Below, piece by piece: positions 4,293 to 42,520 of a stretch of DNA of 64,000 nucleotides. The position numbers were made by a program, and so were the translations under genes. Within the stretch, counting starts at the first letter, position 1, and each line of letters starts with the position of its first letter. A model generated the notes under the pieces. That model made no database searches. It was not told the origin of the DNA and saw only the letters and a program-made list of their open reading frames with translations. The stretch is from Spironucleus salmonicida (taxonomy: Eukaryota), in the NCBI RefSeq assembly GCF_000497125.1, contig NC_090602.1, forward strand, positions 1,426,001-1,490,000, written 5' to 3'.

Positions 4293-4403
4293 AGGCTAGA
4301 AATCCTTAATTTATGATATAATAAACTTATTAAAAATTATGGAGTGCTAAAATATTATCATAATATTATATATAAATTTATATATTATTGTATAAAATTC
4401 AAA

Positions 4404-9031: not shown

Positions 9032-10786
9032 ATGGACACGAACACTTTATTTCTTCATCCAGATGCAATTATATCTAGATCTATAGCATATCACCCATAT
9101 TTAGATATTCTTGCTACTGGTGGTGTTTCACAAGATGAAGGAGCTATTGTATTTTTACATTCGAAGTCATGCCTAAAATAACCATATGTCCATGCTTGTG
9201 TATAACACTTTAACAACTAGTTATAACTTCCGTAATAAGATTCAAGAATACCATCAGCTCCAGAACTTGCGATTCCAATGAATTCTGTTTTATCAATTTC
9301 ATTCAGCCCTTGTGGAAGGTTTTTGGCGGTATTAGGATCAGATCTTACGTCAGAGAAGATTTTTATATACACATTCACTCCTAATGATATAAACCATAAA
9401 AAACTCAAAATTTTCCGCAAATTCGATTTTCCACACCAATTTTCCGAAATTATTTGGTCCCCAGATTCGTCTTATATAGCTGCTGGTACACATGATGGTT
9501 ACTTACTTCTGATTCCTGTGAGGACGAAAATAGCGAACTACAACATTGATTACGATCAGATTAGAACATGTAATAAATAGTTTACAATCAAAGCTTCAAA
9601 CTCGTCGATTTTGGGTATTTCTTGGTCTAGGTGTGGCTTTTTACTTGCTATTTAAAGCTATAATGAGGTCCAAATTTTGATTTGTAAGTAAAATAAAAAT
9701 TCTATTAGTATAAGGAAAGGACAAAAAATTAGTTATATCAGGGAAGATTTTATTGGAGAAGGGATCCAATTTAAAGAAGAATTAACTAACTTCAAAACTG
9801 GTTTAAATATTCCAAAATATCTATTAAATGGCTCTTATTAAAATGTAAATTTTACAAGCCTCTTTTTGAACAGAGGTGCGGAAAAATTTTAAATTGAGTA
9901 GCAAAGTTTACGCACAGTCTATGCAATTGCACTATATAGGAGATAATGCGATTGGAGTCCAGATACGAGTTTTTTAGTACTCCCATGTGGTTAGTTACCT
10001 GTTAAATCTACTGAAAAAGATTTTATCAGTTAAACATTTTGCAGTTACGTTTATACTAAAACTGCAACACACACAGGTGCATAAGATCCTTCAATTGTAC
10101 TTCCCGGACTCCGTTTCCCTTCTACGACTATTAAGTTTTCTCCAGTTCTTTACCAGCTTAACAACGAGAAGTAGAATATCACCGATTTGCCTTATCGTAT
10201 GATTTTTGCTGTAGCTTCTGGATGCGATGTTACCATTTACGATACACAGACATTTACTCCTATAGCACTTTTCTAAGGAGAGTCGTTTTAATCTGATTAT
10301 ATCACTTCGCTATCTTGGGATTTCACAGGGTAGCAGCTATGCGCATTTGGAGCACATTTTTAATTTTAATTTCTGAACTTTTCTCTTCCGATTTACGGTG
10401 TTGATCTTTCAATTTAAGCAGCAAAGCTAGCGTAGGATAGCGAGATCGCTCGTCTAAAGTAAGACTATTGTGTGCGTTATTTAGGATACAGGAAGAAACT
10501 ATAATAATATTCAAATGGTGAACTTGACAAAAAGCCAAATGCACCAACGAAACCAAAAATACCACCTATTTTTGTCAGTCAGAGTGGTTACTAGTAAAAA
10601 TGCAAAATATACGCAGTCAGCGATTACTTTTAGAGCGATATTCAGAGTCAGCCATTGCTACACTTCGAAGTTGGAGAATTGGAGTGGTTGCTCGATCAGA
10701 TAAATGGAGAAACTTAGATATTTAAAGGATCAGAATAAGGTGCGTAGGAAGTAGACGAGAAAGTTGGCGAGAATGTTAAAGAGTGA
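9032..10786 (+). CDS. CHAF1B: WD40 protein, chromatin assembly factor 1 p60/Cac2-like (584 aa)
   Basis: WD repeats (ISFSPCGRFLAV, IIWSPDSSYIAAG) plus p60-type segments DWSPDTSFLVLPCG, IKFSPVLYQL and LPYRMIFAVAS...IYDTQ. Confidence 0.8.
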
Positions 10787-12570: not shown

Positions 12571-15500
12571 ATGTTTCTAAATGAATATGTTAAATATTCA
12601 AGATAGTCATAAATAAGCCCAGAAAGCCCATAAGGACTCTTTATTTTTATTACAGAATTATTCAGTTTTTAATTACCAACGTAAGTTGTCCCATCTTAGA
12701 CAACACCTTTAACTATATACCTTAAATTTTTCAACAAATTGCATACCTCAAATATCTTGTTTTCATAAAAATATGAATTTACAATAAGGCCTGCAAAAAT
12801 TGTACTTAAACTTCCCATTATGACGGTATTATCATAAAATGATGAGTTGTATATGCAGGTTCATTTGTTATGTGGATAATCTTAATCCATAATTTCAACT
12901 TTTAATTTTCCTATGAAATAAACCAACGATATATCATCTATTTTAACAGGATAATTAGAGGAGTAGGAATTTCATTCAAAAAATGCAAAACTACGGGGTG
13001 TAATTGCATCGCACTAACTATTGTCATATCCGCCAAACTTTATATTTAATTGCAATGAACCGCCTAATTTTTTAATTTAACAAGGTTGGTATAAATTTAA
13101 TATGTCTGATTCCGAACATTGGATTAATGCAACTATGATCAATAAACCAAGAAACAAGCCATTTTATAAAGTAAAGCTACAAGATTATGCAGTTGTATTC
13201 AGCAATTTTAACAGAAGAATTGGATTAGAGTCTCTCCACAATGATATTAAAGATGCAGTAATAGATAGCCTGGTTCAAGCTGTAGAACTAGCGAACGATG
13301 TGAACATTGACAGACAAAGTATTTCGTTCAATATAGACAGATATATACTACAAGTTACTTCCCACACTGGCCTAATGCCATTAACAAAAAAATAATTTTA
13401 GGTCACAAACAAGCCCCATCAAACAAATTTTGACGCAAATGCATACGATTTATTTAGCTCAAAATCGGATGTTTTCACATTTTCTAGTTCATCTAGCCTT
13501 GTTTTTGAATTCGTAGTCTAGCTCTCTATTTTCATAGGTGGTGCATCCTCACAATAAATTATAGAGCCGTTTTAAGATGCTTTAACTTATACAATTTGCT
13601 GGGGAACTTGGAGTCATGACAGTGGATAAAAAGTTAATTTAAACTAGTAAAAACCATTTTCTGAGAATGCTTTGCTCAAAATAGAGGATTTGGATGCATA
13701 AATCCATATTATTATAGAGTCAGAGCCATAATAAAAAGCTGATACGAGCAATCTTATTAATATAGAGTTAGTTCCTCCAGAAATCTATTTCTAGGATAAG
13801 GAAAAGGAGCAAATTTTCAATAATATGATTGAGTTTGATTCGCAAGAATTCAATGAGATCAAGTTTATTGAAAATGCACATGTTTAAATTACTGAAACAA
13901 CTCAAATCTAGCACCTTTAGGCATAAAAACAATATCCAGTTTCAGCAAAACTAAGAGTTTACTCATTCCAGCCGTTGATTTAAAACTATTTTAGGGATAC
14001 AGTAAAAATACGTTTTTTCGCTCGGTCAAGCTAAAATGAGATTCTATAATAAGATTCGAGCTATACAGATATCACATTTTCCAATCAAATAACAATTGAT
14101 TTATTTTCTAATTTCAAAGGTGTAATGACTTCTTTATATGTTTAGTTAATAGATAGAATTGACGGAATTGATTACGTTATTGGATAGTAAAAAATTCCTA
14201 TATCGAATACACAAATTCTTGAAAAATGTAAAGCCGATGCATTTATTTAAGATAGAAATAATTAATTTTCTTAACATGTTTTGGATGAAAATTTCTTTGA
14301 CTTATTGATTTTAGAAGCCGTAGGAGATAGTTATTTTGATTAAGAACCACCTGAAATTGCCGTTCTATAGATTTAAATATAGCTAATCAATAGTTAATAT
14401 GCAAATTATGATAATTTAGAGGACAAGGGAAATATAATGACTTAATAAGAACTTTTCCAAGCAGCTGTCCTAAAAAAACTAGGTGATTATGAAAAATATT
14501 TGGTTTATTAATAAACAATTAAAAATGCATTTTTTACTCCTTAAAGAATGCTCGCTATTAGCAAAATTGGATAAAATTCTATATATCGTCACTATGTAAT
14601 TTAAAATAATTAAGAACTACTTTTGGACATTTTATATGATTTGAAATTAAACCACAAAAATGTATACAAGCTTTCACTAATATCTCCGGATCCATTATAG
14701 GTTTCAGCGGTGAATTTCACTATTTCATTCGAAAAATTAAATTAATTCGAGAATATAGGAAATATTGAGGATTTAAAACTTAAATTTTCATTATCTTCAC
14801 CTAAAAAAGTTTTATTCTCACGTATAAAATTTGTATTTTCTCTGCATTTTAATGATCAAAATTTAGGCCATATTCACGTTGTATTTGATGTAGTAAAACC
14901 TTTAAAAAGTTTCTCCTAAATATCATTTTTAATTGCTTTCCCTTATAAAAATTAATAAACAAAAACAATTATTATACGTCGCTTAGGACCAGATTTTATA
15001 CTAATTTCACCGAATTGTAATGGAATCTTTCTGCCTAATTTAGAAGAAATAAACAGTAAAAAATCAATTTAAAATTATCATATTTATAACTAGAATAATT
15101 TATTGGATATAAACATTAATGTTATGATAAAAGAACAATTTGAATTTATTTTAGTTGAGTTCACTCCTGAAATTTTAAACTAGTTTTAGAAAACTACAAC
15201 AAAATTAGTATTAAAAAGTTAAGACTTTAGTGTTGATTTGAATATATCTTTAATGAATTATTGTGATGTATAATGCGAAACCGGAGATATGTTGTAAATT
15301 CCAAAATTTTCAGAAAAGAAATTGTTCTCTTATCCTCCACATGATTCTGGATCTATTAGAATTTTATCAATTTAAAAGCAATATGTGCGTAGTATTGATC
15401 CAAAATATCTAGTTGATATTATACCCTAGGAATCAACCAAAATTATAAAAAAGTATTTCTTGAAATCTAAAGGAAATGATTTAAAATACTTAATTTATAG

Positions 15501-15702
15501 TGATCATATGGGGGATATTTAAAGTTATTCAGAATTTCCAAGCTTAGTAAGAACCAGAAAATGTCGTATTTCAGACGAAGGGTGGATGATACCTATTCAG
15601 ATAAATATGGCATGTTCAAATCATCGATAGTCATTGCGAATATATGTTGTTTCTTAATCTATGTTTATGGGATATTTTTTATTGGAGATTTAGTGGGAGT
15701 GA
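12571..15702 (+). CDS. Large beta-rich protein (1043 aa), possibly nephrocystin-4 (NPHP4)-like
   Basis: Long code-6 ORF containing track ORF 13102. C2-like N-terminus, central helical part, and C-terminal Ig/ASH-like strands ending SLRIYVVSQSMFMGYFLLEIQWE*. The ORF is solid; the family is tentative. Confidence 0.6.
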
Positions 15703-15703
15703 A

Positions 15704-16855
15704 TCATTTAAAATACTAAATTAGTTTTTGAATAATTCTATCCTTTTAATTAACAGGATTTTCAAAATATATGATTATTTATTCTATCATATAATCGAAA
15801 AATTTAAAAATTTTTTATGGAACTTCAGCATAAATATCTTTTACCAAAACTACAAATTTAATACTTTTTGTTTTTAGGATACGAATAAGTGATAAGACAA
15901 ATTTATAATCCGAAAACTAGTCTACTATAATAACGTAATTTCTAATATCAGTAGTTATATATTAAACACTTCTAAAATCAAAAATTTTATCTCCAATTAG
16001 CTTTTCAAGCATACAACTTCCTAAAATTCCTACAATTATGTTTGCATAATTATTAATATCAATTCGACTATATTAATAATATTATGCAAGAATTTCTTCC
16101 GGATTAAGTCTAGCACTAGATTTTTACTATATCATGGACCTTATTAAATTGCTATAGAACTGTGGTATAATATGAACAAAATCTTTATTTCCTGTTTACT
16201 TGAATTACATTAAAGCAATTTCTCTTTAATTAGCAAATGGAGCTTCCCCAAATATTAAAAAATAGAGCACACAACCAGCTGCCCAAATATCTACTGAAAA
16301 TGTGTGTTCACCTTCTTACTATTCAGGTGACTAATATTCTCGTGTACCAGACATCTACTAAAGTAATGATTAACTAGAATATTCAGAACAACCAAAGTCT
16401 GCTAGTTTCAATTATAGTCTTTAGTTTTCATAGTTAAAAAGTACATTTGCAGGTTTAATATCTTTATGACAAATTCTAAGCTTGTGTAGATTTGCAAGCG
16501 CATTCATAAGTTAAATCATAATTTCATCGATGAGTGCATAAGTGAAGAGATAATTTTTAGAGTCTTAAAACTATTATAGGATAGTTTCTACGGTTCCAAA
16601 GTTACAGTATTCCATAATTATACAAAAGTAATTATCATACTAAAAATGATTTATTACCTTAACTGCACCATCAAATTAAACATTTTTCTGAAGATTGACT
16701 TCTAAAATAGCATCATTTAAAAAATCCGGAATATGCTCAAATATTTTGATCATTTTCAATGCATAATATTAATTTTCATATAATACTAGGTAAACAGTAC
16801 CAACTGCACCTTACCCTAGCTACTTAATAATTTAATAATTTTACAATGATGTCAT
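15704..16855 (-). CDS. Ser/Thr protein kinase (383 aa)
   Basis: LGQGAVGTVY, YALK, IMEYC, HKDIKPANVL, KLADFG, GTREYQSPE, DIWAAGCVLY. Confidence 0.95.
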
Positions 16856-16924: not shown

Positions 16925-19900
16925 ATGATTTCACGGGCAGGAAAACGATGTTCTTCTCCAGTTACGAAGTTATAAGTTCCATCTATTTTCTAAAAGTAGT
17001 AATTACAAGCTCCAAAACTAATTAAGGGGGGTTATTAACTGAGTTATAACACGAAGAATTTAGGTGATCAAAAATTTGCATTTTCTTCTGAGGAAGGAAT
17101 ATAACTTGTCAGCATAACGGGAGTGTCTTTAAAATTTAATTTAGTCTAAATAATACATTAGAATTTAGTTAAAATAGTTTCAAAAAATTTAATCTATTAG
17201 GTTTGTGAAATGCAATATGAGATTCCTTTATTTTAGTAAGATAACTCGAAACTTACAAGTGTAGATAATTATTATGATATAACTCAATATACTGAAATAT
17301 AACTTGACACTCTTGATGCCAAATAATATTAACCTATAAATCTTAGTGAAGGATGTACTTATTATGAAAATATTGCGTTTAGATTGTCAAATACTTATAG
17401 TAATGTGTTTAACTCAATAGAAATATAAGAAATTTTTAATGGTGCGGTAAATTTATATTTATAATAATCAAGATATGACTGGTATGTGCTAGAAGGTTTT
17501 GAAGAATTATTTACTGTTAGTGTTAAAATAGTATAAGATATAAATTAATACTTATACAAGTGTAAGTTTTACTATGGAGATTTCGATGTTAAAATTATTA
17601 GACCAGAATAAAAAGCGGATATCAGTTAGTTTATTCGATTTCGATAAGAGTATATTCCTTGTTTATAGTTAATGTAAATATTATTCTAATATTATACATT
17701 CTTAATGAATAATGCGTTAAATAATATTTATTATGAGGATTACAATGATTTTTAGTTTATGATAATGCAAAAAGTATTGCTTCTTGATGATTAGCTAAAA
17801 ATTGATGAATATACACGTTTAATTAATAGCTGTAATCTATTAAATATTACTGCATCTTAATAATTTTTACTTTTTAAATAGGTTTATCCTGGATTATGCA
17901 AAATGCTTTATGTAGACCTATTAAGGTAATTTTTTGATATTACTATTACTAAAGCCCATAGAATGTTTACTGTTTAATTTTAAAAATTTATTGCTGAAGA
18001 GAATATATTCATGTTATAAAATCTGGAAGGATTATTAACGCCTCCGTAAATTAATTATATAAGTAATGAGCTTGAAATTTTAATTCCATTTAATAAAGGA
18101 ATATCTTCTAAAGAAGACTTTAATAAATAAATATCATAAACTTCTTCTTCTGTTTAAGAAGATGTACGTAAGAAAAATTTATCTTTATTAACATTTTTAC
18201 GTTAATTGCATTTTATGGAATTTCAGGAAGATCATTATGATAAATTTCCAATTCATATTAATATTTAATTTATTTAGAAAGTTATTGATAACAAAGATTA
18301 TTTAATAACTGAGCCTTCTTTAGATTATGCAGTAGAATAACTAACAATATTTTTAAACAATATTTTGTATATGGTGCAAGATTTTTCATTTTAAGATTTT
18401 TATTCTTATGCTTAAAAGTAGGACATTGATTATTTATAAAGAATAAAGGAAGAAATTAATATTCTTTTTAATAATTTACCTTCTGAATAGCAATCTAATT
18501 TTTCTTATATTACAGATTAAATCTAGTTGATAACATATGAAATAGATATACCAGATTTTAAACTACTAACATATAAAATTCAATCAATATTAAGTATGTC
18601 AGTAGATATCATCATAGATAATTTTTCTTTGGATGACGAGTTAAATCAAATTGATTTATTTTATAAAGATGGATTTTTAAAATAAATTTAAGAACTTACA
18701 ACTAATTTATCTGCTAATACAAAAAGCATTAATTAGTTAATTTCTACAGGTAAAATTTAAGATGTGAATTTAACTGATGTGTATTTTGTTGAATTATACA
18801 ACCAAGTCATTTAAAATAAATAATTTTTACCAGATATAAATTTTACTGATCTATTGGATGTTTTGGAATTTAAGATTAGTGTCAAAAAAGCCTTTACATA
18901 TTTATTCTAGGACAACTTATTTTATTATTGTTTTAATATTGATACTGGATAATTGGATAGTTTCTTTAGTAAATTTGAGAAATAGTGCTACTCAATTGCA
19001 TAATCAAAAATGCTTTAAATAATGCTAGATTTTTCGTAGTCAATAATTGATAATATGCGTATATTCTTATAGCTTTTTATGTACTTTGAAACTAAGCCAT
19101 TACATTTCCATAAAATATTCGATATTCAAAATATTTTCACTAAACACTAATTCAAAGTATTTTATCATCGAATTTTTGATTGGTTCTTTAATTTTTTATA
19201 AAAAGTTGTATCTACATTTGGATCAGAAATACCTTCGTTATAGTAAATTGAAAAAACTTATCTTTTTATGAAGGAACTAAATGATATAGAAGCTTCTTAT
19301 GGGAATAAGATATAAGATGAAGATTATCCAGATAACTTTTAATACTATAAGTTAGCAGAAGTAGGTTAAATCTTAAATAAAAAAGTATAATAATATTTTT
19401 CTTTACTAAATGAAATAGAAATGGATGAAATTGATAAAGTATTCTTAGTAATTGTTGCAACGCATAAAATTGGTTGCGTTGTTCTTACAAAACTTAATGT
19501 AATCCATTTGAGATCATAAGCATATTTACACTATTTACAAAGTATTAATCTTTCAATTATTAGTTTATCATCGAAAGTTACAATTTTAGTATAAAATATT
19601 TTATTTACCGGAGAACTCGATAAAGTAGACATATATATAGACCTTGGAATTGAATTTGAGTAATTAGACTATGATGTCGAAAATAAGTTTGAAATTGATT
19701 TTTTCACAGAGATTTAAAAACATTCAAAATTAGTACTTCACACAGATAATTTTAACTAATCATAGGAGAAAAATATACTTGATGATCATTTGATGAAACA
19801 TTTATTAAATGATAAGAATAAAAAAGATGAAATGGTATTTTTAATTTATTTAAGAAAAATTATCTTTATTATAAAAGAAATATTATAGCTATCATTTATA

Positions 19901-22900
19901 AAAGATTAATGGTATAGTTGTTTTTCAATTATTTAGAAGAATGATTTTAGTAATGATTAATCTTTCTTAGGAACAATAAAATACTATTATGAAAATCTGA
20001 CATTAGTTTATACAACAATGATATTCGCGTATCTTAATAATGCATTATTACTAAAGTAAAAAGATGTACCTATACGATTTATGAAAATTGATTGTCTTAG
20101 ATCTATATCAATGAAATTTTTGCTTTCTATTCAAAACTTGAGATTAAATTGGAGTTAGTTTTAAAATTTTTTATTTAGTTAGTCGATTAATTTTACAGAG
20201 TCATATATTAAAATGATTGAAAATATTGCTGGATCTTAGTTAAATAATATTAAATATATTTAAATGTTTTAATCTATTTTTGATAAAAATATAAAACCCA
20301 CTTAAATTAAAAACTTAACAACGTAGTTTGGTATTAGTGCTGCATAAAGTTTAGCACTATCTGGACAAGATATTATCGGATCATATATATAGTATTAAAA
20401 TAAATTATTTGATTATTGTCTTCATGTTAATAAGTAATTAGTGCATACAAAATCAGTATTTGGTTTGTTATCATAAATTTATGTTGGCTTATAATAATTT
20501 GAGGTAGATTTTAAATAAAATGGTGATATTTGTATTATATAATTCTTAAGTTATAATTAGATTAGTTTTCTTTAAAAAAATAAGCTAGTAGTTCAACATG
20601 TGATAATGTAGTAACATTTGATTAGTGTCAATTTAGTATAGTTTGCTAGAGATATAGAGTCAATAATTTATATTATGCTTGATATTTTTTATGGTATTAA
20701 TATATTATAATTGTTAACAACTGATTTAGATTTAATTAGAACAAGAGGTAACATATTATAATTCAATATTTCACATATAGAAGATGATATCCATTAATAA
20801 GCCATAAATTAGCTTAAAAAACGATAAACACCTACGTTAAAAAAATTTACGACTGATATTAATAATCAGGATGAGATGACAATCAAATAGTCGGTGCAAT
20901 AAGTAAAAAAGATATTACACGATAGAAAAGAATACAAAGAAAATGAGAAGATTGAGTCTATAAATTTACTAGGTAGTCAAGAAGCTAATACAATTCTTGA
21001 TGCCTGTAAATTTTTGAATTAACTTGCTAAAAAAATTATTAAACAGAAAGCATAATTATTTTCATTAGTCATATATTTTAAAAATGTTAAGGTGGAACAA
21101 TAAAAAGTTTCTTTGAAGGAATTATATAAATTGGTTGTAGAGTTGTACCATGTTAGAGATCGTTTGCTCAAGATACCGTATAAGCACATTTTTGAAAAAA
21201 TATAAAAATAGATGTTATAAAATAATTAAACTGGTTAGGTGGTATAATAATAATACGAAATATTTGACTTAGAAGATTCATATATTTCTAAAAAATAACC
21301 TCTAGAACATTATTATAATAAAATTAAAAAATTCTAAACACACTAAATGTATCTTAAATAACTAGAATTTAATAATTTCGAATAGAATGCATATATTATC
21401 CCACACTAATTAGGTTAGTATTTTGTCTATGCGTTATCATATTCTATTACTCCGTTTATATTAAACTAACATTTTGAGGCTTCATTAATATATTTACTTG
21501 AAAATTAGGCCGTTAATTTATAGATATTTGGAAATCTTACGGGTTTTATTATAACAGATTCACCCATTAGAGGGAGAGTTATTTTGTCATTATAATCTAA
21601 TGATGAAATATTTAGACTAAAAAACCCTATAGTGGTCCCATAAAATTTATATTAGTATGAATACTTGTTAAATTAGTAATACTAATTATCTATAACTTAA
21701 TAAGTATAAGAAGCTAATGCTTAATTAGAAAATCAAAATTTTTAAGTTTTTTTGAATTAATATCCTTATATTATTTAATGGTATTCACTTATGTAATTTC
21801 CATCATTAGACTAACTTAAATCATTTTTATTACAAGAGAACTAAAAATTACCAAAAAATATAGCTATTGCATGTAGATTAAACGATATAATTAATTTCAA
21901 GATAAATTGGTTTGTAAAACCTGTGGGAGACGATAATTTTTTGATGCCTTACAATTTAAAATTGGGATCTTATTGGGGTGGCTCAGTGCAATAAATAGAA
22001 TAATTTTAATTGACAGAAATTTTAATTAGTGCTTTAAATACTATTTTTTAAAGTTTTTATGACAAAGTCCCTGTATTTTTATTTTCTAGATCTGAACCTC
22101 TACCATAATTTGTTAAAGACTATAATATAATCACTAAAACCCTATAAAGAGTACTATAAAGAAGGTTGCAACACATGTATTTAACAGATTAGAATTTTAA
22201 CAATCAGTATTCTGCAATTAAGCGTTATCTGGTAGCAGGAGATATTGTCATAATTATCAACTTTCAATTTTTATCACTAGAGTTTTAAAATCGTATTCAT
22301 GATCTTTTTATCAAATTCACATAATTATAGGGATATTTTGACGAGATATACAAACCGACTATAAATCCAATTACTATACGAAATGCAATTAAATCAGAAA
22401 TTAAAAAACTATTGCATAAATAGTTAGATATTGAAGAATAATAAAGTATTACCTAGGATGATATAGTATTGTAGTAACTTTCATATTTGGATGTAAAAGA
22501 CTAACTAGGCTTTCTTATATTTTCAGTTCCTTTAAATGATTATAACATTTAGCAAGATATTTCTAAGCAAAGTTATTTATTTTTTATAAATAAATTTAAA
22601 TCTGTAAGTTAATCATATACTTATAATGTTAATTAAAATCTTTAGGTAGAGTATGAAAAAATTAATGATGTCTTTGCAAATAAATTTTTAAATTTGTAAA
22701 ATATTTTAAAATATTTTAATACTAAAATCTAACTAATAACAGTCAAAGATTACAAAATGGTGACTAGTTTATTAGCAGAGTACAAAAATATTGGTTATGC
22801 TGTTTTATTTTTAGATATTGTTTTCAAGTCATATGTCTGTAGTAATACATAAAAAAGTTAAGGTAAAAATAAGGCATAGTAGATCTTAGGCTTTGATGAA

Positions 22901-25900
22901 TATTCGTTTAGAAGCTCAAAAGTAGTTATTCAGTAACTTAGACTTAAAGGAAAAATTAATGATTAATAAGGTTAGTATTAAGAATTTACCAATGACTTAA
23001 TGCTAATAGCTAATTTATTGATATAAATATTTAATCTTAACAAATAAGAAACTGGTATTATTAATCATATGACAGTTTTATTCTGTAACATTTTAATTAA
23101 GTCTTAAAATGATAATAAATCTAGAAGGCATAACTATTCAAAATACACGAATGATTTCATAAAACCGTATTTAAATAAGTAAGCAAATTAATTTATAAAA
23201 TACTGTTGTCAAAAATTTTAATTGACAATGGGGATTGGTTTAGAAGTTTTTTAATTGATGAATTTATTATAATTTAAGAAGCCCATATTATTATTGACTA
23301 ATAATTTGTATAATATTATTTACATGGCATAAATAATTTAAGATTTATCGAATATTAAAAATGATGTTAGTGTAATTACAGATGTATCAGATTTTAGTAT
23401 TTAACAATTATCTATTAAAAAAATTTATATTATTAATCCTACAAGCTATGAATAATTCGAATTATTTACATAATATTTAAATAGACATGAGGTTTCAAGC
23501 ATTATAAATAGAGTATTTATTATTTGCCCGGCTGTTAAAAAAGATACTTTATGGTAAACTTATTAATTTAGATATTCTTGTTTAGCAGAATTTAGTTAGA
23601 TTTTGCCAATTAATCTTTTTATTTTTTCTAATAAGAAAAAATTCGACATCTTTTAGCTTTAACGTTTTTATATTACTAATATATATGAAGGAATCGATGT
23701 GACACCTAAGAGTTTTTATCGATTAAAACACTTATAAAATTTATTTAAGGGTATTACAACAAATTTATTTAATTTATTTTTAAAGGAATTTAATTTAGGA
23801 AATAAATAAGAAGAGTTTATTCATTTGAGATCCATATTTGATTTCTTTTTGTTAAGGTTTAATATTATGGTAATTATAGAGGAAGATGTTAAATATACAG
23901 AAAGCACTAATAAAATGGAAAATTTTTTCACAAAAATTCAAAATGTTAAAATGAATTCTCAAGAATATAAAGATAGTGTTAATTCAAAAGAAAAAGAGTT
24001 TATTAGTTAGATTGAAACAGTAGATATAAAATATTAAGGATTAGATGCTGAGTATGTTTCATCAGTCAATAAGATTGATATTGAGAATGTACAGTTGTTG
24101 TAATAAATGTAAGGTAATTTTCAGTCGTATGGGATAGGAAATTTATCAGGTTGCTAAATCAAATTTAGCACTAATTTTTTAGAATAATTTATCTAATAAG
24201 AAACTGCTTATGATTCATTTAAATATTTATAAGAGGTAGTGTTCATTAGCCTATGGAATACTTTTAGTTTGTTTGGATAATTTTATATTAAAAATATAGT
24301 TATAGATAAAAAATGGAAATCGATCTACAAAACTTTAGAAGAATATGATCTAGAGAATTACAGGCCTGGAATTGAAAAATACTTCTTACAAAATTACATT
24401 AAGTTAATAGAATATGAAAATGTAGAGAAGTATATTATTTAATTAGAGCAATCTAAGTATTCCACGTTAGCACAAGTTGTTAAAATAGGATATCAGTCTT
24501 TATCTGCAGTAATGCCGAAGTAGTTTTATTATAGATAGTTTTGCTATATTAACTATTTTAATAAAGATGATATAGGTCAGTATAAATGGCTTAGTTATTG
24601 TTTAGGGAAAGGTATATTGAAAAATGTCAATTTGCATAAATTTATAAATATCTAAAAGCAAACTGGACAATCACTTAAAAAGAATACTAATTTTACAATT
24701 TTAAAATAGTAAACATTTGTTGATGGAATGTGGGATATTAATGGACTAGTTAATAATAGTACATAAATAGATGACAATAATATTAATACAGAAGAGTAAT
24801 TATTAGAATTTATGAAATTAGGAAACGTATCATTTAAAGATAAGTAATCAACTGAATAAATATTAGGATTTACAAATAAATAGGTACAGAATAAGTTTAA
24901 AAAAGAATTCAATACAAATTAAATTAACTTATAGCAAGATATTTAACCATTATTTGAAACATGGCAATTTATTTTTTTAGATGATGAACGAATAGCTCTT
25001 TCAACATTAATTGCATGCTGTTTTATGTCACCATCTACGTTTTGTTTAAAAGGCTAGAAGTATAGTGGAAAAACAACATTAATTAAAATTGCTAGTGTTA
25101 TCATTAAAGATTTAATTGATTTTAGTAATTCAATGACCATGAACTTAGATGACGATTCATAGTTTAATTCGCTGGCTTAGGGAATTATAGAAAAATTTGA
25201 ACTAGTTAGTATCTATAAACAGAGTATTATAGATATAAGTGATGATACAATAGACGATATAGGGTTAGATATAGCTAGATATAATTCAATCTAATTCTAT
25301 GAGATTGAATAATATTTACTAAAGAATATTAATGAACTATAATTATCTCATGCTGCTATAAATAAAATATATGAAATAATTACCAATTTTAATCAACTAT
25401 AACAAGTAGAAAAAGTAGATGTAATAGAAAATAAACTTGAAATAATATAATAACTTAGATTTTTAAAATTTACTAGAGGAATCAAATTTCCAGTTTTCGC
25501 ATTTGAATTCAACTAACAACAATTCTCAAGTATTTCCCATAGATTTATGTCGTTTATTAGGGACCATAGAATCATTCTTTCCTAGGTATGGAGTTTAGGG
25601 TTAGAATCTCAAATTGTTAGTGTTATGGGGTAAGTTTAACTTTCGGATTGTTCAGTTATTATAGAGTTAGATGAAAATTAGTCAATAGATTTAGATGTAG
25701 TTGAATTTATTATGCCAAACTTATCAATGTAGTATTTGCGTCGACTATTTAGATAATACGGATAAACTTATAACATTAACATGAATGATGATTGGATTCA
25801 ATCTTTCTACTATGGAATTAACCTAATTCAATCTTCACTTCCGAACGACATATTTAATAATTTTAAATTTATTGAAAGTTTTATGTTTTCTTAAGGTAAT

Positions 25901-28900
25901 TTACTGCCATCCTATATATCTTTGGTTAAAGACTCACGTAGATTTAATAAAACAATGGATATTGCGATTGAAGATTTAATTTAAGAAATGAAACCAGAAA
26001 TTTGGACTATTTTAATTTCAAATTATGAAAAATTTAATGATTAAATTGAAAAATCACAAGAGACAGATTTTAAGAAAACATTAATGTAATTTGTGGAAGT
26101 AATATCTTAGTAGTAATAACAAAATCCTACTTATTTATAAAAAATTATAGCTCTAAACTAAGATTTTTTATTTAAATCAATAAATATTTTCACACTATTC
26201 CATGTCTTAAGCGAGTAAAATATAGCAAATTCATGTTTTTCTTAATGTCTGGAGAGATTTACTTCTTTGAATTTATTAGGTTATCTTAATATTAGTTCTA
26301 ATACTGATTTAACTACTAAGAAATATAAATTAATTCATCCATGGTAAGAAACTTCATCATATACTTATTTATACTAAACATTTTAATCTGTTATTACATA
26401 ACTTTGCTTAACTTCAGGTAGAAGCGAGTAAACATAAGCTTTAACTAGCACAGCTTTTTAGAATAAGTTTGCAAGAAAGTTATTTTATTTTATGAAACCA
26501 CTTGTAGTTGATCATAAGATTTTTGTTCAAAAATTTCCATTTACAAAAGTTCTTTAAAAATTTATAAAGAAACTTCCAGCGTAAGAAACTATTGTTTATT
26601 AAATAGAATAGTTTTTACTTTAAAATAAGATGAAAAGCTTGTACGATGCTGGGCTCATATCTGCAGGTATTTATGAAACCAATAGTTTTTTTAATGCTCA
26701 TATCATCTAATTATATTCATAGGCTGCCACATAATATGAACCAATGCTACTAATTGTTGTTTACTAAATGCTAATGTATATTTTAAAGCTAAAATAAAGA
26801 AATGCTTCTATTGTTTAACTATAAATTTAACTTACAAATGGAGAACCATAAGATATATTCGATATACTTAACAGAGATTCGATTTATAATTTCAAATCCT
26901 ATTTTATATCTATAATTAATTAATTTTTGTCCTAAAAAATTTCCAAACCAAATGGATCATAACATTCTGTACATAAATAACATTCTCAGGATGATTTAAT
27001 TTCTGAAGATATAGCAGATGAAGAATTTATTGAATAATAGGTGGATTCATCTGAATCTAGTGAAAATGATTCAAATGATGAACTTGAAGATAATAATCAT
27101 TTCAACGGCTTTTAAAATCAGGCAGTATCGAGTATAAGATTTCCTATTATAGAAATAAAATTAAATACGAATTCAGGATCCAATTAGTATAATATGCTGA
27201 TATAATTACTCTCAACTGTTTCTTAATATAAAGTTATGCAAGCAGATTAGTTTAAGATAGCATTTTAATAAATGGGTAAAACAGATGAACAGTTATAAAA
27301 TGAGGATATGGACGATGATATATCTGCTTATTCAAAAGGTTCTAAAGCATCGTCTGCTTAATCTGGATCTGTTGCGCATTCCAATTACAGTAATTTCGAA
27401 TAAACAGCAAATTATGACAAACTTATGTATACCAGTTTATCTTAATAATAATTACTATTTGTTAATAATTTAAAGCATGATAGAAAACTAATATTAGATG
27501 TTTAAAATATTTTAAACATGTTGACTACTTACACTCATAATTCAAACAGATAGCATAAAAAGGCATAAAGTTAGCTTAATTCTGATTTAGTATAATATAT
27601 AAAAAATTTTGTTCAGGAACTATAAAATTTATTGATAATTGATGATGATGCTATAGAATATTTAGTTTTGCTTTAAATTTTCAGGTTTGCTATTCTAATG
27701 TCTCTAGGTATTAAACCATCTTTAGCATTTAATTAAGGTACATATAATAAAAATACAATGTTATTTAATTACAATATTTAATCGTTTTTCACAGGTATTT
27801 GTTTATAATCAGGTTTATAGTAATTTTAAAATACATCTAAATTAAAGGTAGGTATTATGTCAGCAGAATTTACATTAAATGGGTTCCCATCATTTCTAGG
27901 TTAGCGTTGTCAATAGTATAACTAGCTAAAAGAGGAAGAAGATATATTAATATCCGATGTTATATCTGGAAATTAATTTCCAGACAATAAAGAGCAGGTA
28001 AAAAATTATATATAAGATCCTTAAGATGTTATTTTAATTTTGCCGAAATCATTTTTGTAAAAAAAATCATATTCATAATTTTCACTACAATCCACATTAT
28101 TGTCATCCCTCTAAAATAGTTCATTCGTATAGTTTTTATTCGATTAATAGGAATTATAATCTATTCTCAAACTATTATCTATAGGGTTAGATTTGTATGT
28201 AGAGCTAGATAATAAATCTTTTTATGCGTTATTATCACTGACATTCTCTATTATTATAGTTGATGATTTACCATCCTAAAAAACAGATGAAATTGGGAAC
28301 TTTAAATTTAATTAATAAGGCATTAAATCTTTTGGCTAGATACCAAATATTTTAGAATAATCTGTTAAGTATTTAAATAGCTAAAATTATAATAAAACGT
28401 AGAATTTATAAAATATGTCTCATGTGTAATTTAATACAATTAACTATTAAGCTGGAGATTTACCACACCTTTTTAATGTCAGTGGATGTGTGCTGCCAGA
28501 AGACAGTCCAATTTTTGAATAATTTTAACATGGATATCCCTTTATTATTTAATAGTTTTGTCATATTACTATAAATTTATTTAATACATTAATTAACTTT
28601 TGCAAATAAAATACTTTAAACTTCGTGGAGTTCACATAGCTTGCTTCAAATATAGTTAATTTTTACACTAAATAAATATTTGAGTTCTTTTAAAATGCTA
28701 ATTATTTGTTTTTAATTTATCATTATTATGAAGCGTTATCATCTCCTTTATAAAACAAACCATAGTTAGTAGATTCATTATAAAGTTGTCAAGACTTGTA
28801 AAAATAAATCTCTGAAGAGCTTATTAAATATAAATCAGGAGTATAAGGTCAATATTTTGATTTTTATTTCCTTAAAAACGTGCAGAAAGTTTTAAAATAT

Positions 28901-31900
28901 GATAAAATCAAATATATGAATCAAAAATCAAAATAAACAGATTTTGATTCTTAGCTACTTATTTCAACTTTTGAATCATATATTATTAGAAATTTACTGT
29001 ATACTATTATTGAAAAGATAAAGCCTAAATATAATTATTACCAAACTATTGCATAATCTTCATATATTGATGGGATCATTTGTGCATGCTATTTAGTATT
29101 TTAATAATCAAATATTTTAAATGATTAAATGTTATTTAATTAATTAAGGCGAATGAAATTTAGCCATGTGTTTGGCTAATGTTAGCATATTATTTAAAAT
29201 ATTAACGTCACTGATAATATTAACGAAATAAATGGAAAATACGACTATTTATTAGTTTATCTAATTAGCTAATGTCAGGAATATGGATTTACAATTGATG
29301 TATAGTAAAATCTTTCTTAATAATCTTTATTCGGATAAATTACAAAATTCGAGAAAATTAACTATACTTAGAACAAACCGTTAATAGTTAATGGTGGATT
29401 TTCATTTTCACGATCCATTTAGCATCAAATTTATTAAATTGGAATGTTTAATTATCCGATTATAACCTTTATGTAACAATTACATATTCCAATTTAATAC
29501 AACGATCCTGTATACGAATAATTATATAACATCGCATTCATGAGCCAGAAATTGTTTAAAACAACATTTTTAGTTAATGAATCTCTGTTGCTTATTACTG
29601 CATGTGTATTAGAGGTTATTAAATTCTCAGATACCGCCAGGGAGGAATATTTACGTCTAATTTAAATGACGTTAGATGAATAAGATTTATTAGGGAAGAA
29701 ATCTATTGCACAAGATATTGCCAAGAAACTTCTTATAGTAGATTTATCTGCCCCATCTAAAGAATTCCAACAAGCATTAGCCAGAGCCATCTCAATTTCA
29801 GATTCTATAGTTTCTTTTACTAATTTTTCAGATAAAGCTTCGAATTCAAATCTGGTTATATTACGGAAATTCTTGTCTCTTAGGGGAAGAAAAGTTATAT
29901 AGAAGAGATAAACTATTTTAATTGGTCTATAAACTACTATTACAAACTAAGCATTACATAAATATAAAATTGTTATTGGATGTAATAAAGAAACCCTACA
30001 ATAAACGCTGCAGCGAGCAAATATGGATACCCAAGAGTTTTTAGATTTATTTTCAAGCTTGTACTAGGATGATAATGTTGATATTCAAAGCTAGTAAATC
30101 TTTATTACAACCTAAAATCTCATAAAAAGTGTTTTCTCAAATCAGGCAACAATTAGATATAAAGTAGAGAGACACTACCAGCTAAATACGCAAATCATGG
30201 AGACTATTAAAATATTTAAGGAAAAGGTCAAAAAATATTTTAGTCATTTCGTATTCGATGCTGTAAATCTAACAGTTTAAGAACAGGTTCCAATGAGTGT
30301 TCTCATGCAGAATTAAGTTGAGCCAGAGGAGGAGGAAAACGATGCTAATATCGATGATTTCGACTTCTCACAGCGCATAAATTCGCTTATTAAAGACGCT
30401 GACACGATTTTGAGCACATCAATTAAGTCATCGGCGTACGTCTCTGCGAACAGCTCCCAAATCCAAGACCTGCAGGACATTCTTTCGTACATTTAGGACA
30501 TTGACACCAGCGTGCACTTCCAGGATACCGTCCAGCTCAATCAGGACATCGACATTACACAGAAGATCGTTTTGAAGGATTTCGATTACCCAATTAACGC
30601 AAAAATCCAGGCAGCGCGCGTTATCCAGCAAATTGGTTAACCGTCCTGCTAGCAGTTCGCGCTTGCGATCCAGTTCATTATCTCGCTTTTCGAGAACTAT
30701 GCGAGTCAGAAACTGCAGTTTATGAGCTTCCTGGGCCAGGATTTCATCGCAAATATCTGCGGCCACATCACGTCCCAATGTGACCTGCTCGTCACGAATT
30801 CGCTGGCAGTGGTGGCGCAAAATCCTAGCTAAATCCAAGCGCAGCCGCAGCTGAAGGGGATGGTGCGGGCGACGCAGATCTACCCTATCGTGTACGCGCT
30901 GACAATCAAAAAGCAGCTGCTCATTGAGTTCTTCATTTTTGCAGTTCTGCCGCAGGTCCTGAAAATCACATCGGCGATGACGGAGCAGAAGTACCAATTC
31001 GCCCTCTTTTCGTACATCAATATGGTATTTTTCTCGTTTATGCAGTAGGAGCGCCAGATAACGTCATTTGACGAAATTCGCGAATTCGTGCAGCAGTACC
31101 TGTAGACTACGCAGCTTAATCAGTAGACGGAGCTGTAATTCTGCTTCGCACAGCAGATTCGACTCATGTTTTCTAACAACTCAAAATTTAAGTTACAGAG
31201 CTAGAAATAGTTGCAGCAGTTCAGGGACATTTTGCCGTCAGTGGTAACACTTTCCACCCGGTTAGAGCAATATTGGATCAAACTGGCTAGCCTGTCATAC
31301 AATAATATTATTTATAACATTTTGCCATGGTTTTTAAAATATCATTCCATTTTCGTCTAGTTAAGTCAGTGTCAAAACATATTTGCGGGTATAGTAGTTT
31401 ATTGGTAGAAGACTCAGTGTGTGACAATTTCATAAATGTTAGGTAAAATTTAGATGTAAAAGCCCAAAAAGCTTATCGAACAATAGACTAGTTAGACTTA
31501 ATTATTAGATGGCGAAGAGTAAGAAGAAAACAGCGAGGATATCGTTGAGGAAGAGGATCAGTAGGATGAACCAGCTTTGATTAAAGATAGAATTACGCTT
31601 ATTTTGGATAGATAGTAGAAATCAGATAGACAGATTTCAAACTTACCGTAAAAGTTACAAATACCAAATCCTGATACGATATTTGCAGCATTTTTGATTG
31701 GGAACTAGCTATAACCGCATCTTTTATAGGATAATCTTACCCTTTATACACATTTAATTTATGGTATTTTAGACTTGTAAAAGTCAATTAGTTTGGAGAT
31801 AGTAACTAATCACTCAAGCGCGTCAATTCACAATATTGCTACAGGTTTAATTAAAACTTGCTAACTGACTACATAGACAGAACGATAAAGAGTTTTAGTT

Positions 31901-34045
31901 AAGTTTTGGTATGATATTTAGGCTCATTTTGAGGTAATTATGAAAATTTTATCGCCAAATATAACATATAATGACATAAATCACCATTAGGTTATTATTT
32001 CAGATTAAATGTTTACAATTGCAGAGTTCTTTAATACTATTTCTATCGAATACCTCAAATATTTCTAGAAGATAAAGCTACTTATGGTTTAGGATGAGTA
32101 TGATTCTTCTAAACATTATTAATAATTAATTAAGATAGGATCCCCATAAAATACAGTTTTCATAATTTATTATGACAACGCAATTGATATAAATTCTTTA
32201 TTATCTTTTGTTTATGATAGCTCTGATTTGTAGGTATTTACGAGTATTCCACTAATATTTACTAATAAGCTTACACTATAACAATTAAGAGATATGATTT
32301 CGGTTATTAATATAGACCCAACTTATAACCTTTAAGAGCTTTAAAACATAATATCCTTTATTAAAAATAAACAAACAGTATATCCATATCATACACAGCT
32401 CCCTATAATTATAACAATTCCTACAAATACGCACAGATATTCAGCTTCAAAAAAGTATATACAATAGTTTAAACAATTAATAACATAGTTAATTTAGTTA
32501 AGTGATCCTTATATAGCATAAATACGATAGTCAGATACATTGGATAACTCGTTTAGACATATTTTGTCATTATTTATGTTAGAATTATTTGATATGTAAA
32601 CAAAGAATATAAAAATTGACACTAAATATTAGAATAATCAAATTCTAAGCTATATTTTAATAATTTCTATTATTAAATTATAATTTGATATTCCAGATGT
32701 AGAAATATGCAAAGTGTTTAGAGATCCACACTAAATGAAACACCTAAACTAAATTCATTCTGTGTCTGTGGTAAATTAATATGATAGAATCAAATAGAAA
32801 TTGGGAGATTCTAACTAATATTAATAATAAATATTAGAATATTTCTTGTAACCTTAAGTGTCTAGTAAATCAAAGTCAGTAAATATTTACGAAGACGATT
32901 TTGATATTTTTGATGATTTTGAATAAGATCTAGAGGAAGTTATAATTGTGGAATAACAAGAGGAAGAAATAAAAGATGAAGAAAATCTTAGTGACTGGGG
33001 AAATTTCTCAGATTATGAGATAGAGGAAGAGGAAGACATATAGGAATAAGAATTGATTGATGTAGGATAAAGCAAAGAATAAAATTTCTATTTAAATTTA
33101 ATAACATAAATAAATATGTTTGAAACATAAAATGAAGTCTAAAAAATAATTGATATTAACTCATTTGAACATTAAGTTAAGTAGATTCTCATTTAAGGAT
33201 AAAGAGTAATTTAAATAAATAATTAGAATCAGATTTAGTAAATTATTCTTTAAAGATAAACACAGTCAAATCAAAAAGTAGATAATTGTTTAAATATCTT
33301 TAAGTAGTTAGATAAATTTTTGCTCTAGAAACGAGCAAAATAAAATATTAGAATGTTCAACAACATAGAAAGTATTAGAAAGACTTCGTTTAATGAAGTT
33401 AAAAGTATAGAAAAGCAAATACCGAATCTTCTAAAGAGCTTTTTAAATTATATTACTCAACCGGCAATGGAATCCTTTTCTCTTTAAACACCACCAGAAA
33501 TTATGTTTTAAAAATTTATTTCATATTAACTAAATACTCCAATTGATGCTGTAATAGGTACATAAACTTTCGGAATTTTTGATGGCCAATGGATATTTAA
33601 TATTAATACTTTTAAATTCTGCTTTAATGAAATTCTATTATTTATTAAATTTAGGGATGCTTACATGCGCTAGATATATTTATGTGATATTTAGTTAATT
33701 TTTATCAGCAATAAATAACATGGATTCCCTAAAGTGGAAGATAATGAATTAATATTATCAGATACTCATGATGACGTTCGAAATACTGTATTCAGAGACT
33801 TTATTTTAATAAATGGATATATAGATCCAATCTTGAATATGATTACTCATGATTCACCTGAAGCTAAGAAAGGGTTTATTGATACTGCTGAACTTTACGT
33901 ATACTCAGTAGTTGCAAAAGAAGAGATTCTACGATGTTAGGGCTATGTTTAGGTTCCACTAAAAATAATTGATACAATTATATGCTAAGTTTTTGTTAAA
34001 TCTGAATCTGCATTAGATGGAATTCTAATATCGACTATGGAGTGA
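16925..34045 (+). CDS. Giant, highly divergent dynein-heavy-chain-like protein (5706 aa)
   Basis: Every TGA in 17.1 kb was checked by hand and none is in frame until GAG TGA at 34043. Remnant motifs occur in DHC order: ILDDHLMK and YLNNALLLKQKDVPIRF (linker), AAA4-like FIFLDDERIALSTLIACCFMSPSTFCLKGQKYSGKTTLIK, coiled coils, AAA5-like KTTFLVNESLL...AREEYLRLI, AMTEQKYQFALFSY. The ORF is certain; the family is inferred. Confidence 0.65.
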
Positions 34046-34073
34046 AATATAATATATTTATTTTACTTTCAAA

Positions 34074-35432
34074 ATGTCTTAATTCTTTCCCGTCAATTAC
34101 TAAGCAAAATATGCATTAGATTATGAATAAAAATCAATTAAATCAAAAATTAAGACATAACATTATGAAAGAGAAGTATTCGAAGATAAAGATATAGTCA
34201 CAATTAATTAATATTTTGATATATTTTCAAAAATTTATAACAGGACATTTGATATCACAACTATAACTAAGTTAAAGGTTTATCTAACATAATTGTAAGA
34301 ATAATTGCGAATTTAATGCAACTTAGAGCAACCTATCACAATATATTAATTTTTAAAAAATAACTATACGGCTTCATTATAGTTTAGACTAAATGCTACA
34401 TTTGAATATTAATCTGTTTTTAATTAATTACAGAAATTTTTCGTCACTGAATCTCAACTTAAAGATATTAAAAAATGTTATAAATTAACTTTACATTATA
34501 GGGTAGATAGTCTAATATTAAATATGAGTTATCATCTCATGAAGTTTTTACAATAGTTTAGTGACTTAAATACAGATCTTATAGGGTTATCCAAAAAATT
34601 TTATTAAAGGAATGACATAAATTCAGACAACTCAGATTCATATGTAGTAATGAAAGATATGACACATTATCCTTAAAAACACATTGACGAAGGAAACATA
34701 GTATAATTGTTTAATGATATTTATAAGCCTAATGTCAAATGTTTGTCATCATCTGATATGCTTAAAGAAGTAAAACTTCTTCATGCTGAAATTTAGAAAT
34801 TAGGTAGTTTTGTTACAATTAAGTAATATATCATTTCAAAAACATAGGTTTCTTGTGACTGTTGTTTTAAAATTAAGAATTTAATAATAAATAAATCAAT
34901 TGAAAACCTTTAAAAGTATATTTTAAATGAATAGTTTCTATCAGATGATGTTAAAAATATAAGTATGACCTATTATAGATTATGTTGTGAATTTTTATAA
35001 ATATTTTGCATGTTTAGAACATATTTAGTTAAATTAAATAATCTATAATAAGATAAAGATTTAGAAAATACCTCTGTATTTGATTTACTGTAAAAAATAA
35101 CTCGCACTAAGTTAGAAGTTGATATCATAGATAATTATAATATAAATCTATAACCAGAATATTGTAATGATATTACAAAAGAGCAATCGACGTAACAAAA
35201 TATTTTATAAGATATCATACCAGATCCAGAATATTATACTCAATAATAATAAATATAATTAAATGAATGCTGTTGCTAAACTGAAGACATTTTAATTGAA
35301 TCTAGACATAATTAAGAGTTTAATTTAGAATTAAGAGTAAATAAATTATAACATGATGTTAACATCATTAAATAATAGCAAACTTCCATATTAGACATAT
35401 TGTAATTAGTTTTGGAATAAATAAAAAAGTGA
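34074..35432 (+). CDS. Hypothetical protein (452 aa)
   Basis: MSQFFPVNYQAKYALDYEQ...VLEQIKK*. Starts 28 nt after the previous stop; ends AAG TGA. Confidence 0.72.
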
Positions 35433-35473: not shown

Positions 35474-36160
35474 ATGCATACCCATACATTTTTTACTCCA
35501 AAAGAGATAAAGGAACATTGCACTCCTTCTGATTGCTGGGTTTCAAAGTTTGGTAAAGTATATGATTATACCAATCTTATTAAAAGGTCCCCAGCAAAAT
35601 TAGTTGAAGCATTATCGCGCTCGGCTGGAGAAGATGTTTCATCTTGGTTTGATCCAACAACTGGAGATTTTTACAAAATTTCTAATCCATTAGACGAAAA
35701 TGATCGTTATCGCTTACCCTTAGGATTACCAACACTTCATACAGCTGATGTATATTCTCCTATTTAATAAGAGATTGACCATCAGCCGATCACAACAGTA
35801 GATGCAGCATCACCCACTGTAGAAAATCCATGGTGGAGAGATCAATCATATTGCATTGGAAATTTAACAAAAAATGCCAGAGAAATTGATATACTGAACA
35901 GTCTTACTAGCTAAAAACATAGATTAGAAGTTGCAGATGAACTTACCATTGCTGAAATTGCTGGAAGATATAACAGATTTAACTCAAATTGTTTGACTGG
36001 ATATTAGTGGCGATTTGACGGTTAGCCATTGAAAATGGATGATACCTTAACAAATAATAAAATCATGGATGAAAGACCAATATTTTTAAAATTAGGATGG
36101 CCTTAGGATTAGTGGCATATTCCATGCATAATTTTAGTTTGGAAGGACGAATGTATGTGA
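35474..36160 (+). CDS. CYB5D1: Cytochrome b5 domain-containing protein 1 (radial spoke), 228 aa
   Basis: FFTPKEIKEHCTPSDCWVSKFGKVYDYT...AGEDVSSWFDPTTGD...PWWRDQSYCIGNLT...ILNSLTSQKHRLEV...YQWRF...LKMDDTL...IPCIILVWKD. Matches the CYB5D1 b5 plus ubiquitin-like layout. Confidence 0.9.
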
Positions 36161-42440: not shown

Positions 42441-42520
42441 TTTTTAAATACATTTAAATTTTTTATATATAGAAAATGTTATATTATTAAATTAACGTTG
42501 ACTATTGTACCCACTTTAAA

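Follow-up and report, generated by a model that had tools for sequence, protein, structure and literature searches.

The question posed by a 64,000-nucleotide stretch of the genome of the fish parasite Spironucleus salmonicida (the window; C7:1426001-1490000, C7 being contig NC_090602.1 of a 14.5-Mb, 42-contig genome) is what kind of protein is encoded by a single giant gene, P0001, which occupies 16925..34045 on the plus strand (positions are those of the window unless a contig label is given). P0001 is a real gene: its 17.1-kb frame contains no internal TGA, as stated in the first-pass annotation of the window, and translation with table 6 yields a protein of 5706 amino acids (aa), with 473 TAA/TAG codons decoded as Gln and the sole TGA acting as stop. 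Under the standard code, just two open reading frames (ORFs) of at least 100 aa are found across the whole window. The reading favoured here, with somewhat better than even confidence, is that the product descends from a dynein heavy chain, has diverged from it strongly and would act not as a motor but as a scaffold or regulator that is static and tuned by nucleotide.

A family of at least eight paralogues

Searching of the genome with P0001, and then with its paralogues, recovered seven further related genes. These are located at C2:1365185-1383523 (plus strand, 6092 aa), C2:1504568-1523008 (minus, 6144 aa), C7:978042-995849 (plus, 5919 aa), C5:1598089-1615020 (plus, 5637 aa), C7:1549653-1566809 (minus, 5698 aa) and C7:200431-216831 (minus, 5438 aa), along with a compact paralogue at C3:523818-536105 (L095-L097; minus, 4088 aa), lengths being counted from the first Met. 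Because scoring in the genome search is restricted to first-look candidates, a family size of eight is a lower bound. All seven frames are in phase and TGA-terminated, the proteins share 17-30% identity with P0001, and the family ranges from 4088 to 6144 aa; the compact member has the shortest stalk interval of all and carries few inserts. In the family tree, P0001 clusters with both C2 genes (support 100/100), and the branches are long (0.7-3 changes per column). Each member harbours exactly one GxxxxGK[ST] motif, at the same aligned position (8/8); G2710, G2715 and K2716 are invariant in 8/8. Of the 1211 columns without gaps, 26 are invariant, and these three residues are among them. Judged from its sequences, the family appears to have been unrecognised until now, anciently expanded and missed by standard gene annotation. 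It would raise the dynein-related inventory of S. salmonicida by about half. No paper on it was found in a literature search made mostly without subscription journals.

Evidence for dynein ancestry

The family was compared with a dynein profile of 46 ordinary heavy chains of low redundancy, drawn from 120 listed, with domain numbering taken from P0029 (DNAH17). With a five-member family profile, the top hhalign matches fell on the late linker, the P-loop and an AAA4 motif, each scoring higher than any of 210 reversed controls. With the eight-member profile (best of 220 reversed controls, 22.3), the late linker at the end of DHC_N2 (21479..21775; aa 1519-1617 to DNAH17 1595-1695) scored 42.5 (E 1.4e-4, 98 columns), AAA3 scored 31.3 over 70 columns, the AAA4 anchor 27.4 (to AAA4 2881-2895) and the early linker (20231..20380; aa 1103-1152 to DNAH17 1338-1387) 26.2, while the C-sequence reached just 21.5, under the reversed maximum. 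Three downstream fragments, misaligned in the C-half alignment, add noise to the eight-member comparison beyond aa 3950; they were left out of the segment, block, interval and placement tests before aa 4800.

In a ten-by-ten segment test, the linker (Z 9.4) and the C-sequence (33542..34042; Z 5.2) stood out. Row bests were also obtained for AAA2 (2.7), CC2-end (2.3) and AAA5 (1.7); the AAA1 module scored 2.8 on AAA1, second to AAA5 (3.8), and values were low for the AAA4 (0.7) and AAA6 (-0.7) modules. A C-sequence block (aa 5618-5650) was best placed at DNAH17 4369, with z 4.7 vs 3.8 for reversed sequence. Family hidden Markov models (HMMs) were found in the predicted place for the linker in 22 of the 46 related dyneins, for AAA3 in 19, AAA5 in eight, AAA4 in seven and the C-sequence in six, chance expectation being about 1-3 of 46; the corresponding counts were two for AAA2, two for each stalk flank and zero for AAA1 and AAA6.

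Fold evidence comes from a template-free AlphaFold2 model of aa 3495-4460, built with five family rows as alignment. With this model, 42 Foldseek matches reached E ≤0.001 (best E 2.8e-7); among the matches listed, 41 of 46 were titled dynein, and the other five were 2700-4100-residue chains of axonemal repeats. Prediction by segments followed by Foldseek, as had been suggested with the first annotation, thus retrieves dynein motors first, at low TM-scores. VIA-align located an AAA+ fold at model residues 685-890 (Z 10.5, root-mean-square deviation 3.1, 132 aligned), and in one of its rows model residues 26-891 span human dynein 2955-3705, a stretch that runs from AAA4 into AAA5. A single-sequence AlphaFold model of aa 1601-2800 was poor (pLDDT 31) and its fold search returned no dynein; large targets are therefore not matched to dynein by default. 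In our own whole-motor alignment, which was not used for boundaries, the first setting was uninformative and three of five later settings gave z 3-7 vs most nulls.

Direct sequence searches were largely silent. BLASTP and HMMs built from the ordinary dyneins of the genome gave no match on P0001; Pfam AAA_6 was detected at 20 places genome-wide and MT at 15, none of them inside the P0001 gene. Comparison by hhalign with shallow 9- and 11-row dynein profiles gave nothing significant, and a metagenome scan yielded 54 pattern matches, none confirmed. Searches of protein libraries outside the genome with aa 1400-3000 and aa 1501-2700 returned only P0001 itself, which does not imply absence from other species, because phmmer would recover two of the paralogues if they were in the library (in a local rerun with the database size kept equal, it does so at E ≤1e-55). 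The outside search with a family profile covered proteins of 969-2765 aa, below the length of full-length relatives. In the ESM Atlas, eight of the ten clusters listed for aa 1401-3000 had families or names of the dynein AAA type at scores of 0.90-0.91, a weak signal of low recognition value.

Several results weigh against a dynein origin and the architecture proposed here. Pfam, the first check that had been advised, detected no dynein family in any of four long and 23 short windows of P0001, nor in 22 + 7 pieces of the paralogues, and PDB sequence searches returned nothing relevant, whether the query was P0001 itself (phmmer) or one of three alignments. In the ESM Atlas, aa 3495-5192 had no dynein match (best 0.79), and the recognition values of both queries lie below the reliable level. 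AAA1 and AAA6 were not placed statistically (0/46 each). The AlphaFold2 model has a mean pLDDT of 48.5 and pTM of 0.32, with values below 50 across the stub region (model 454-516); the Foldseek TM-scores are only 0.07-0.15, and the best VIA-align domain is a generic AAA+, with Lon, RFC and Clp scoring as high as dynein. The whole-motor alignment reaches significance vs some nulls only, and its middle path is unstable.

Of the features that define a dynein heavy chain, the linker (DHC_N2) is present before the ring and the C-sequence after AAA6; among the six tandem AAA+ modules, AAA3, AAA4 and AAA5 are supported, AAA2 is weak, AAA1 is AAA-like but unspecific and AAA6 is unsupported. The combination of hhalign, segment scores and Foldseek leaves little doubt that P0001 is dynein-derived, and it supports the earlier proposal of a dynein ancestor enlarged by inserts.

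Loss of the AAA1 Walker A and probable identity of the surviving P-loop

Hydrolysis at AAA1 powers the dynein motor, and the microtubule-binding domain (MTBD) sits at the coiled-coil tip (PMC8754002). The AAA1 Walker A is intact in all 46 ordinary dyneins. In P0001, the degenerate AAA1-position module (21962..22564) was placed by its order after the linker and by eye; aa 1680-1880 appear AAA1-like by eye, with W-x-G at the GYEYLG position and a strand ending at the Walker A slot, and hhalign gives an AAA-type match of 29.2, but to the AAA5 template. The Walker A slot (~22085-22108) contains no Gly or Lys motif, and in the Walker B slot (22238-22273) Ile-Asn replaces Asp-Glu; placed by eye, the latter slot is devoid of DE in 8/8 members. 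The exact slots are inferred, but no GxxxxGK[STQ] occurs before the single conserved P-loop in any of the eight members, and none between the linker and aa 2710, so that the death of AAA1 does not depend on the exact placement. Very likely, AAA1 is without Walker A in every member and the protein is motor-dead.

The first-pass annotation had also reported the loss of this Walker A, which stands, but had sought it at 21400-21590. The text it read there (SITPFILN...ITDSPIRGRV, aa ~1507-1552, with no GPAGTGKT) is present as described; as an AAA1 site the stretch was rejected, since its alignment is with the terminal part of the linker.

The only GxxxxGK[ST] of P0001 is GQKYSGKT at aa 2710 (25052..25075), in agreement with the earlier claim that it is the sole clean P-loop; 63 of 2000 shuffles of P0001 contain such a motif. 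The annotation had called it AAA4-type. Spacing argues otherwise: from the P-loop to the LFxxxE anchor of AAA4 (aa 3739-3743) there are 691-1108 aa in the seven members measured, vs 83-100 aa from AAA4's own P-loop and 424-500 aa from that of AAA3 in ordinary dyneins. Furthermore, the linker-to-P-loop distance of the compact member (829 aa) fits the 664-1063 aa seen for AAA3 and is shorter than the 1011-1459 aa seen for AAA4. An ungapped scan of the P-loop module ranks AAA3 first (5.1), followed by AAA2 (4.3) and AAA4 (3.5), and the 70-column hhalign match is to AAA3, while the global segment test, as a point on the other side, ranks AAA4 slightly higher (Z 4.3 vs 3.7 for AAA3). On the spacing and the ungapped scan, the surviving P-loop is assigned with considerable confidence to AAA3 (module at 24947..25774, located by hhalign, spacing and HMM placement) and not to AAA4. 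No acidic pair occurs in its Walker B slot in any of the seven members aligned there, and Glu2914, near the sensor-I position of the module, is invariant in 8/8. Long intact frames and one site kept in eight diverged copies suggest selection for nucleotide binding at AAA3 throughout the family.

A probably shortened stalk

The first-pass annotation had listed stalk-like coils; in their place, only a short helical stub is predicted (~150 aa, 28619..29068, between the CC1-start and CC2-end anchors, the former placed by eye only). From CC1-start to CC2-end there are 80-154 aa in the family (80 in the compact paralogue) vs 331-349 in the 46 dyneins, which leaves no room for a full coiled coil and MTBD. 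The wider interval between the anchors of AAA4 and CC2-end is 219-322 aa in 8/8 members vs 454-543 in 46/46 dyneins. The model places helices at aa 3900-3939 and 4002-4061, with ~60 low-confidence residues between them. Among ~3300 offsets, the predicted one gave a CC2-end block its top score (z 4.4 vs 3.6 for reversed sequence), although a longer block came only third there. Against this placement, the CC1 block fell outside the top four offsets, both stalk flanks were placed by HMM at chance level only (2/46), and one unstable path of the whole-motor alignment lays the stalk columns over aa 3435-4214. Given the shortfall between AAA4 and AAA5 relative to the 46 dyneins, it is likely that the stalk and MTBD have been lost by deletion.

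Proposed role and competing explanations

Under the favoured reading, the chain would retain the dynein order of tail, linker, six AAA-position modules and C-sequence, enlarged by acidic inserts. With neither Walker A nor the Walker B acids, AAA1 should deliver no power stroke; AAA2 and AAA4 would likewise be without a P-loop, and a stalk cut to a short helical hairpin without MTBD should leave the head unable to grip microtubules. As both the AAA1 Walker motifs and the MTBD would be missing, such a chain could not step or slide doublets. AAA3, alone in keeping its Walker A, is predicted to bind nucleotide, with hydrolysis doubtful, and may thereby set the shape of the ring. The static ring and tail could then partner true dyneins or occupy dynein docking sites in the flagellar apparatus, although the flagellar location and the partners are guessed by analogy. 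Similarly, the scaffold or regulatory role and the likeness to the animal proteins DNAHX and DNHD1 are drawn from analogy. At the level of the genome, at least eight such rings would stand beside ~15 stalk-bearing dynein loci, and it may tentatively be proposed, at something short of an even chance, that this lineage abandoned power stroke and microtubule binding while keeping the ring for its nucleotide-sensing AAA3, as a stalkless switch or scaffold.

The alternatives differ in what they retain of this picture. A non-motile dynein could still bind microtubules, as a static cross-linker or a brake on the axoneme, if its stalk and MTBD lay elsewhere (for example, at aa 3000-3500 or 4400-4700). 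The stalk anchors are supported in part only, one alignment path does spread the stalk columns widely, long predicted helices follow AAA5, and the missing Pfam MT match means little because every dynein family was missed in P0001. However, in the model an alpha/beta module occupies aa 3520-3780 and the only long helices are those at aa 3900-3939 and 4002-4061, the compact paralogue has just 80 aa between its stalk anchors, and the shortfall recurs in 8/8 members although their P-loop-to-AAA4 interval exceeds that of ordinary dyneins; a hidden stalk is accordingly considered unlikely. A dynein-derived ring working outside the flagellum, as a remodeller or scaffold of the RNF213/midasin kind with AAA3 as a slow active site and Glu2914 replacing the Walker B acid, would account for the AAA3 Walker A and one nearby Glu being invariant in all eight members, for the several specialised jobs that eight long-diverged copies suggest, and for the lack of a tail match to an axonemal class. 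The missing Walker B acids in 7/7 aligned members and the failure to identify an arginine finger count against it, as does the report by Kollmar that orphan dynein tails, with few exceptions, are indicative of the axoneme (PMC5100056). This reading is given a rather low probability.

The two remaining explanations deny either the ancestry or the function. Both RNF213 and midasin are stalkless six-AAA chains: the former couples a dynein-like ring to a RING/RZ ligase module, and midasin has an N-terminal six-AAA ring, a long linker and a C-terminal MIDAS domain. Descent from such a giant AAA+ chain, or chance resemblance, would be in keeping with the blank Pfam and PDB searches and with the listing of Mdn1 (Z 9.7) among the generic AAA+ matches of VIA-align. 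It is nonetheless very improbable: the two strongest matches, linker and C-sequence, lie outside the AAA modules, and the Foldseek rows listed are dyneins or axonemal chains. As to RNF213, the Pfam scans of P0001 showed no RING family, and the listed Foldseek rows did not include it. Midasin itself was rejected, as the ring of P0001 follows a tail of ~1650 aa including the linker, the C-terminus matches the dynein C-sequence, and midasin lid-domain matches occur at a separate locus (C7:941440-943743, plus strand), likely the midasin of the genome. Extreme divergence and the loss of catalytic motifs could also mark a decaying relic, and a "ghost gene" has been proposed for DNHD1 (PMC8754002). 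Yet eight frames of 12-18 kb without TGA, in consistent phase, with 17-39% identity and a conserved P-loop, need long purifying selection; a pseudogene was rejected on these grounds, and a functionless relic deserves hardly any credence. The static, nucleotide-tuned dynein derivative therefore continues to be the reading preferred here.

Remaining features of the gene and its surroundings

Upstream of the linker, P0001 carries an N-terminal tail of ~1030 aa (16925..20026, its boundary inferred from the linker matches), which is related among the paralogues but has no significant match to a tail of any of four ordinary dynein groups compared; the comparison did not settle the class of origin. 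The AAA2-position module (23117..23629) is devoid of a P-loop and weakly placed. The AAA4 module, also without a P-loop, lies at 27452..28618, and the start of the model aligns into human dynein residue 2955. AAA5, with an AAA+ fold (29372..30079), is the best-predicted part of the model (pLDDT ~80 at model 770-880) and is followed, at the putative strut or buttress position, by a long helix (30104..30286; model 900-960, pLDDT <50). The AAA6-position module (31892..32524) is placed by order only and is statistically unsupported. The acidic inserts reported by the first-pass annotation near 27000, 31520 and 32900 pass a threshold of at least 11 D/E in 25 residues (26990..27097, between AAA3 and AAA4; 31484..31600; and 32879..33088, before the C-sequence), while the one at 30320 (30320..30370, after the strut helix) is visible by eye and too short to pass.

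Within the ORF, positions 30301-31300 form a GC-rich island, with a third-position GC of 0.47-0.79 vs ~0.2 elsewhere, many CpG and a CAA/CAG preference. The island is single copy in the genome, and the frame and homology continue through it; paralogue C7b has a similar island of ~5.5 kb, from about C7:988000.

A protein kinase gene (15704-16855, minus strand) stands head-to-head with P0001, 69 bases apart. On the plus strand further upstream are a 1043-aa ORF without Pfam match (12571-15702), nephrocystin-4-like by eye only, and a CAF1B/HIR1-type WD40 gene (9032-10786). Downstream, two ORFs without Pfam matches (33849-35432, plus; 40941-42848, minus) are mutually similar by eye, the former overlapping the end of P0001 if its first ATG is used. 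A cytochrome b5-like domain protein (35474-36160, plus; Pfam E 3.9e-8) presumably resembles the flagellar CYB5D1.

Elsewhere in the genome, P0002 (C5:~1320830-1337450, minus; L027/L028/L049) is a separate, divergent protein of 5504 aa labelled "Dynein heavy chain", with an altered AAA1 P-loop (no GPAGTGKT), a Pfam AAA_6 match at E 4e-19 and a stalk (MT) family still detected. It is a candidate for one of the Spironucleus orphans of Kollmar, as is a dynein at C3:473479-474453 (minus; L011/L038) with the AAA1 P-loop GKAGSGKT and a weak stalk match. Two AAA_6 matches of identical score, 33 kb apart (C6:120696-121688 and C6:153741-154733), apparently reflect a recent dynein duplication.

Comparison with known dyneins

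Ordinary dyneins (P0029, DNAH17; PDB 9dnb, 8dzz and 4w8f) share with P0001 the linker, module order, AAA3 P-loop, AAA4 anchor, AAA+ fold and C-sequence, and differ from its family in their intact AAA1 Walker A and full stalk interval. Dead and stalk-altered dyneins are already known kinds. DNAHX (sea urchin XP_041462850) is a heavy chain of 5272 aa with many inserts; like P0001, it is enlarged, carries a degenerate AAA1 and is proposed to be non-motile (PMC11785096). It is described as a partner of normal dynein, a role which for the P0001 family is proposed by analogy only. Unlike P0001, DNAHX was found by BLAST, is ATP-bound at AAA1 with Walker B kept, and carries an MTBD on a stalk that folds back. 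In the P0001 family the AAA1 Walker A has disappeared entirely and the stalk looks deleted. In the available part of the same source, DNAHX is reported only from animals and called absent from protists, in contrast to the eight Pfam-invisible protist paralogues.

DNHD1 (class 11 of Kollmar) is likewise an orphan heavy chain with inserts and has been linked to ciliogenesis (PMC11785096, PMC8754002, PMC5100056); the catalytic Walker B residues of its AAA1 are absent (PMC11785096). Compared with P0001 by description only, it is a metazoan class with a single copy in humans, and its resemblance to the P0001 family is read, by analogy, as convergence. Classes 11-13 comprise proteins of 4800-6000 aa with weak TBLASTN homology (PMC5100056 supplement, Fig. 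S1 legend). Within these, class 12 has a stalk without the typical microtubule-binding site or coiled coils, as would the P0001 stub; it is, however, holozoan and TBLASTN-detectable, and in the portion available its stalk is called unusual and not described as shortened (PMC5100056). Convergence of the P0001 family with DNAHX, DNHD1 and class 12 is the best reading of these partial likenesses. Among diplomonads, SsaDHC_A/GilDHC_A and SsaDHC_B/GilDHC_B are long-branch unclassified dyneins (PMC5100056 supplement, Figs S3-S4). The Ssa entries bear the same species label as P0001, but they are no more than two and both have a Giardia gene as partner (PMC5100056). The Pfam-detectable divergent dyneins of the genome (e.g. 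P0002) could account for them, although, names and not sequences having been compared, one of the eight family members may also be among them.

The family would show that entire classes can escape dynein surveys that depend on Pfam or BLAST, and similarly invisible families may hide among the giant hypothetical proteins of other fast-evolving flagellates. It would also provide a natural test, in an organism amenable to tagging (PMC6429047), of the functions that the dynein ring and AAA3 have in the absence of motility. Non-motile dyneins such as DNAHX and DNHD1 have been proposed only recently and are poorly understood; in the sources available they are described so far from animals. Described nowhere that was found, and set apart from SsaDHC_A/B by descriptions only, is a Pfam-invisible protist family of eight in which the P-loop of AAA1 has been erased, the stalk is probably shortened and one site, at AAA3, is conserved. 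With its AAA1 P-loop erased, its stalk probably deleted, AAA3 apparently held by selection and a 14.5-Mb genome carrying eight copies, the P0001 family would go further in this direction than either animal protein.

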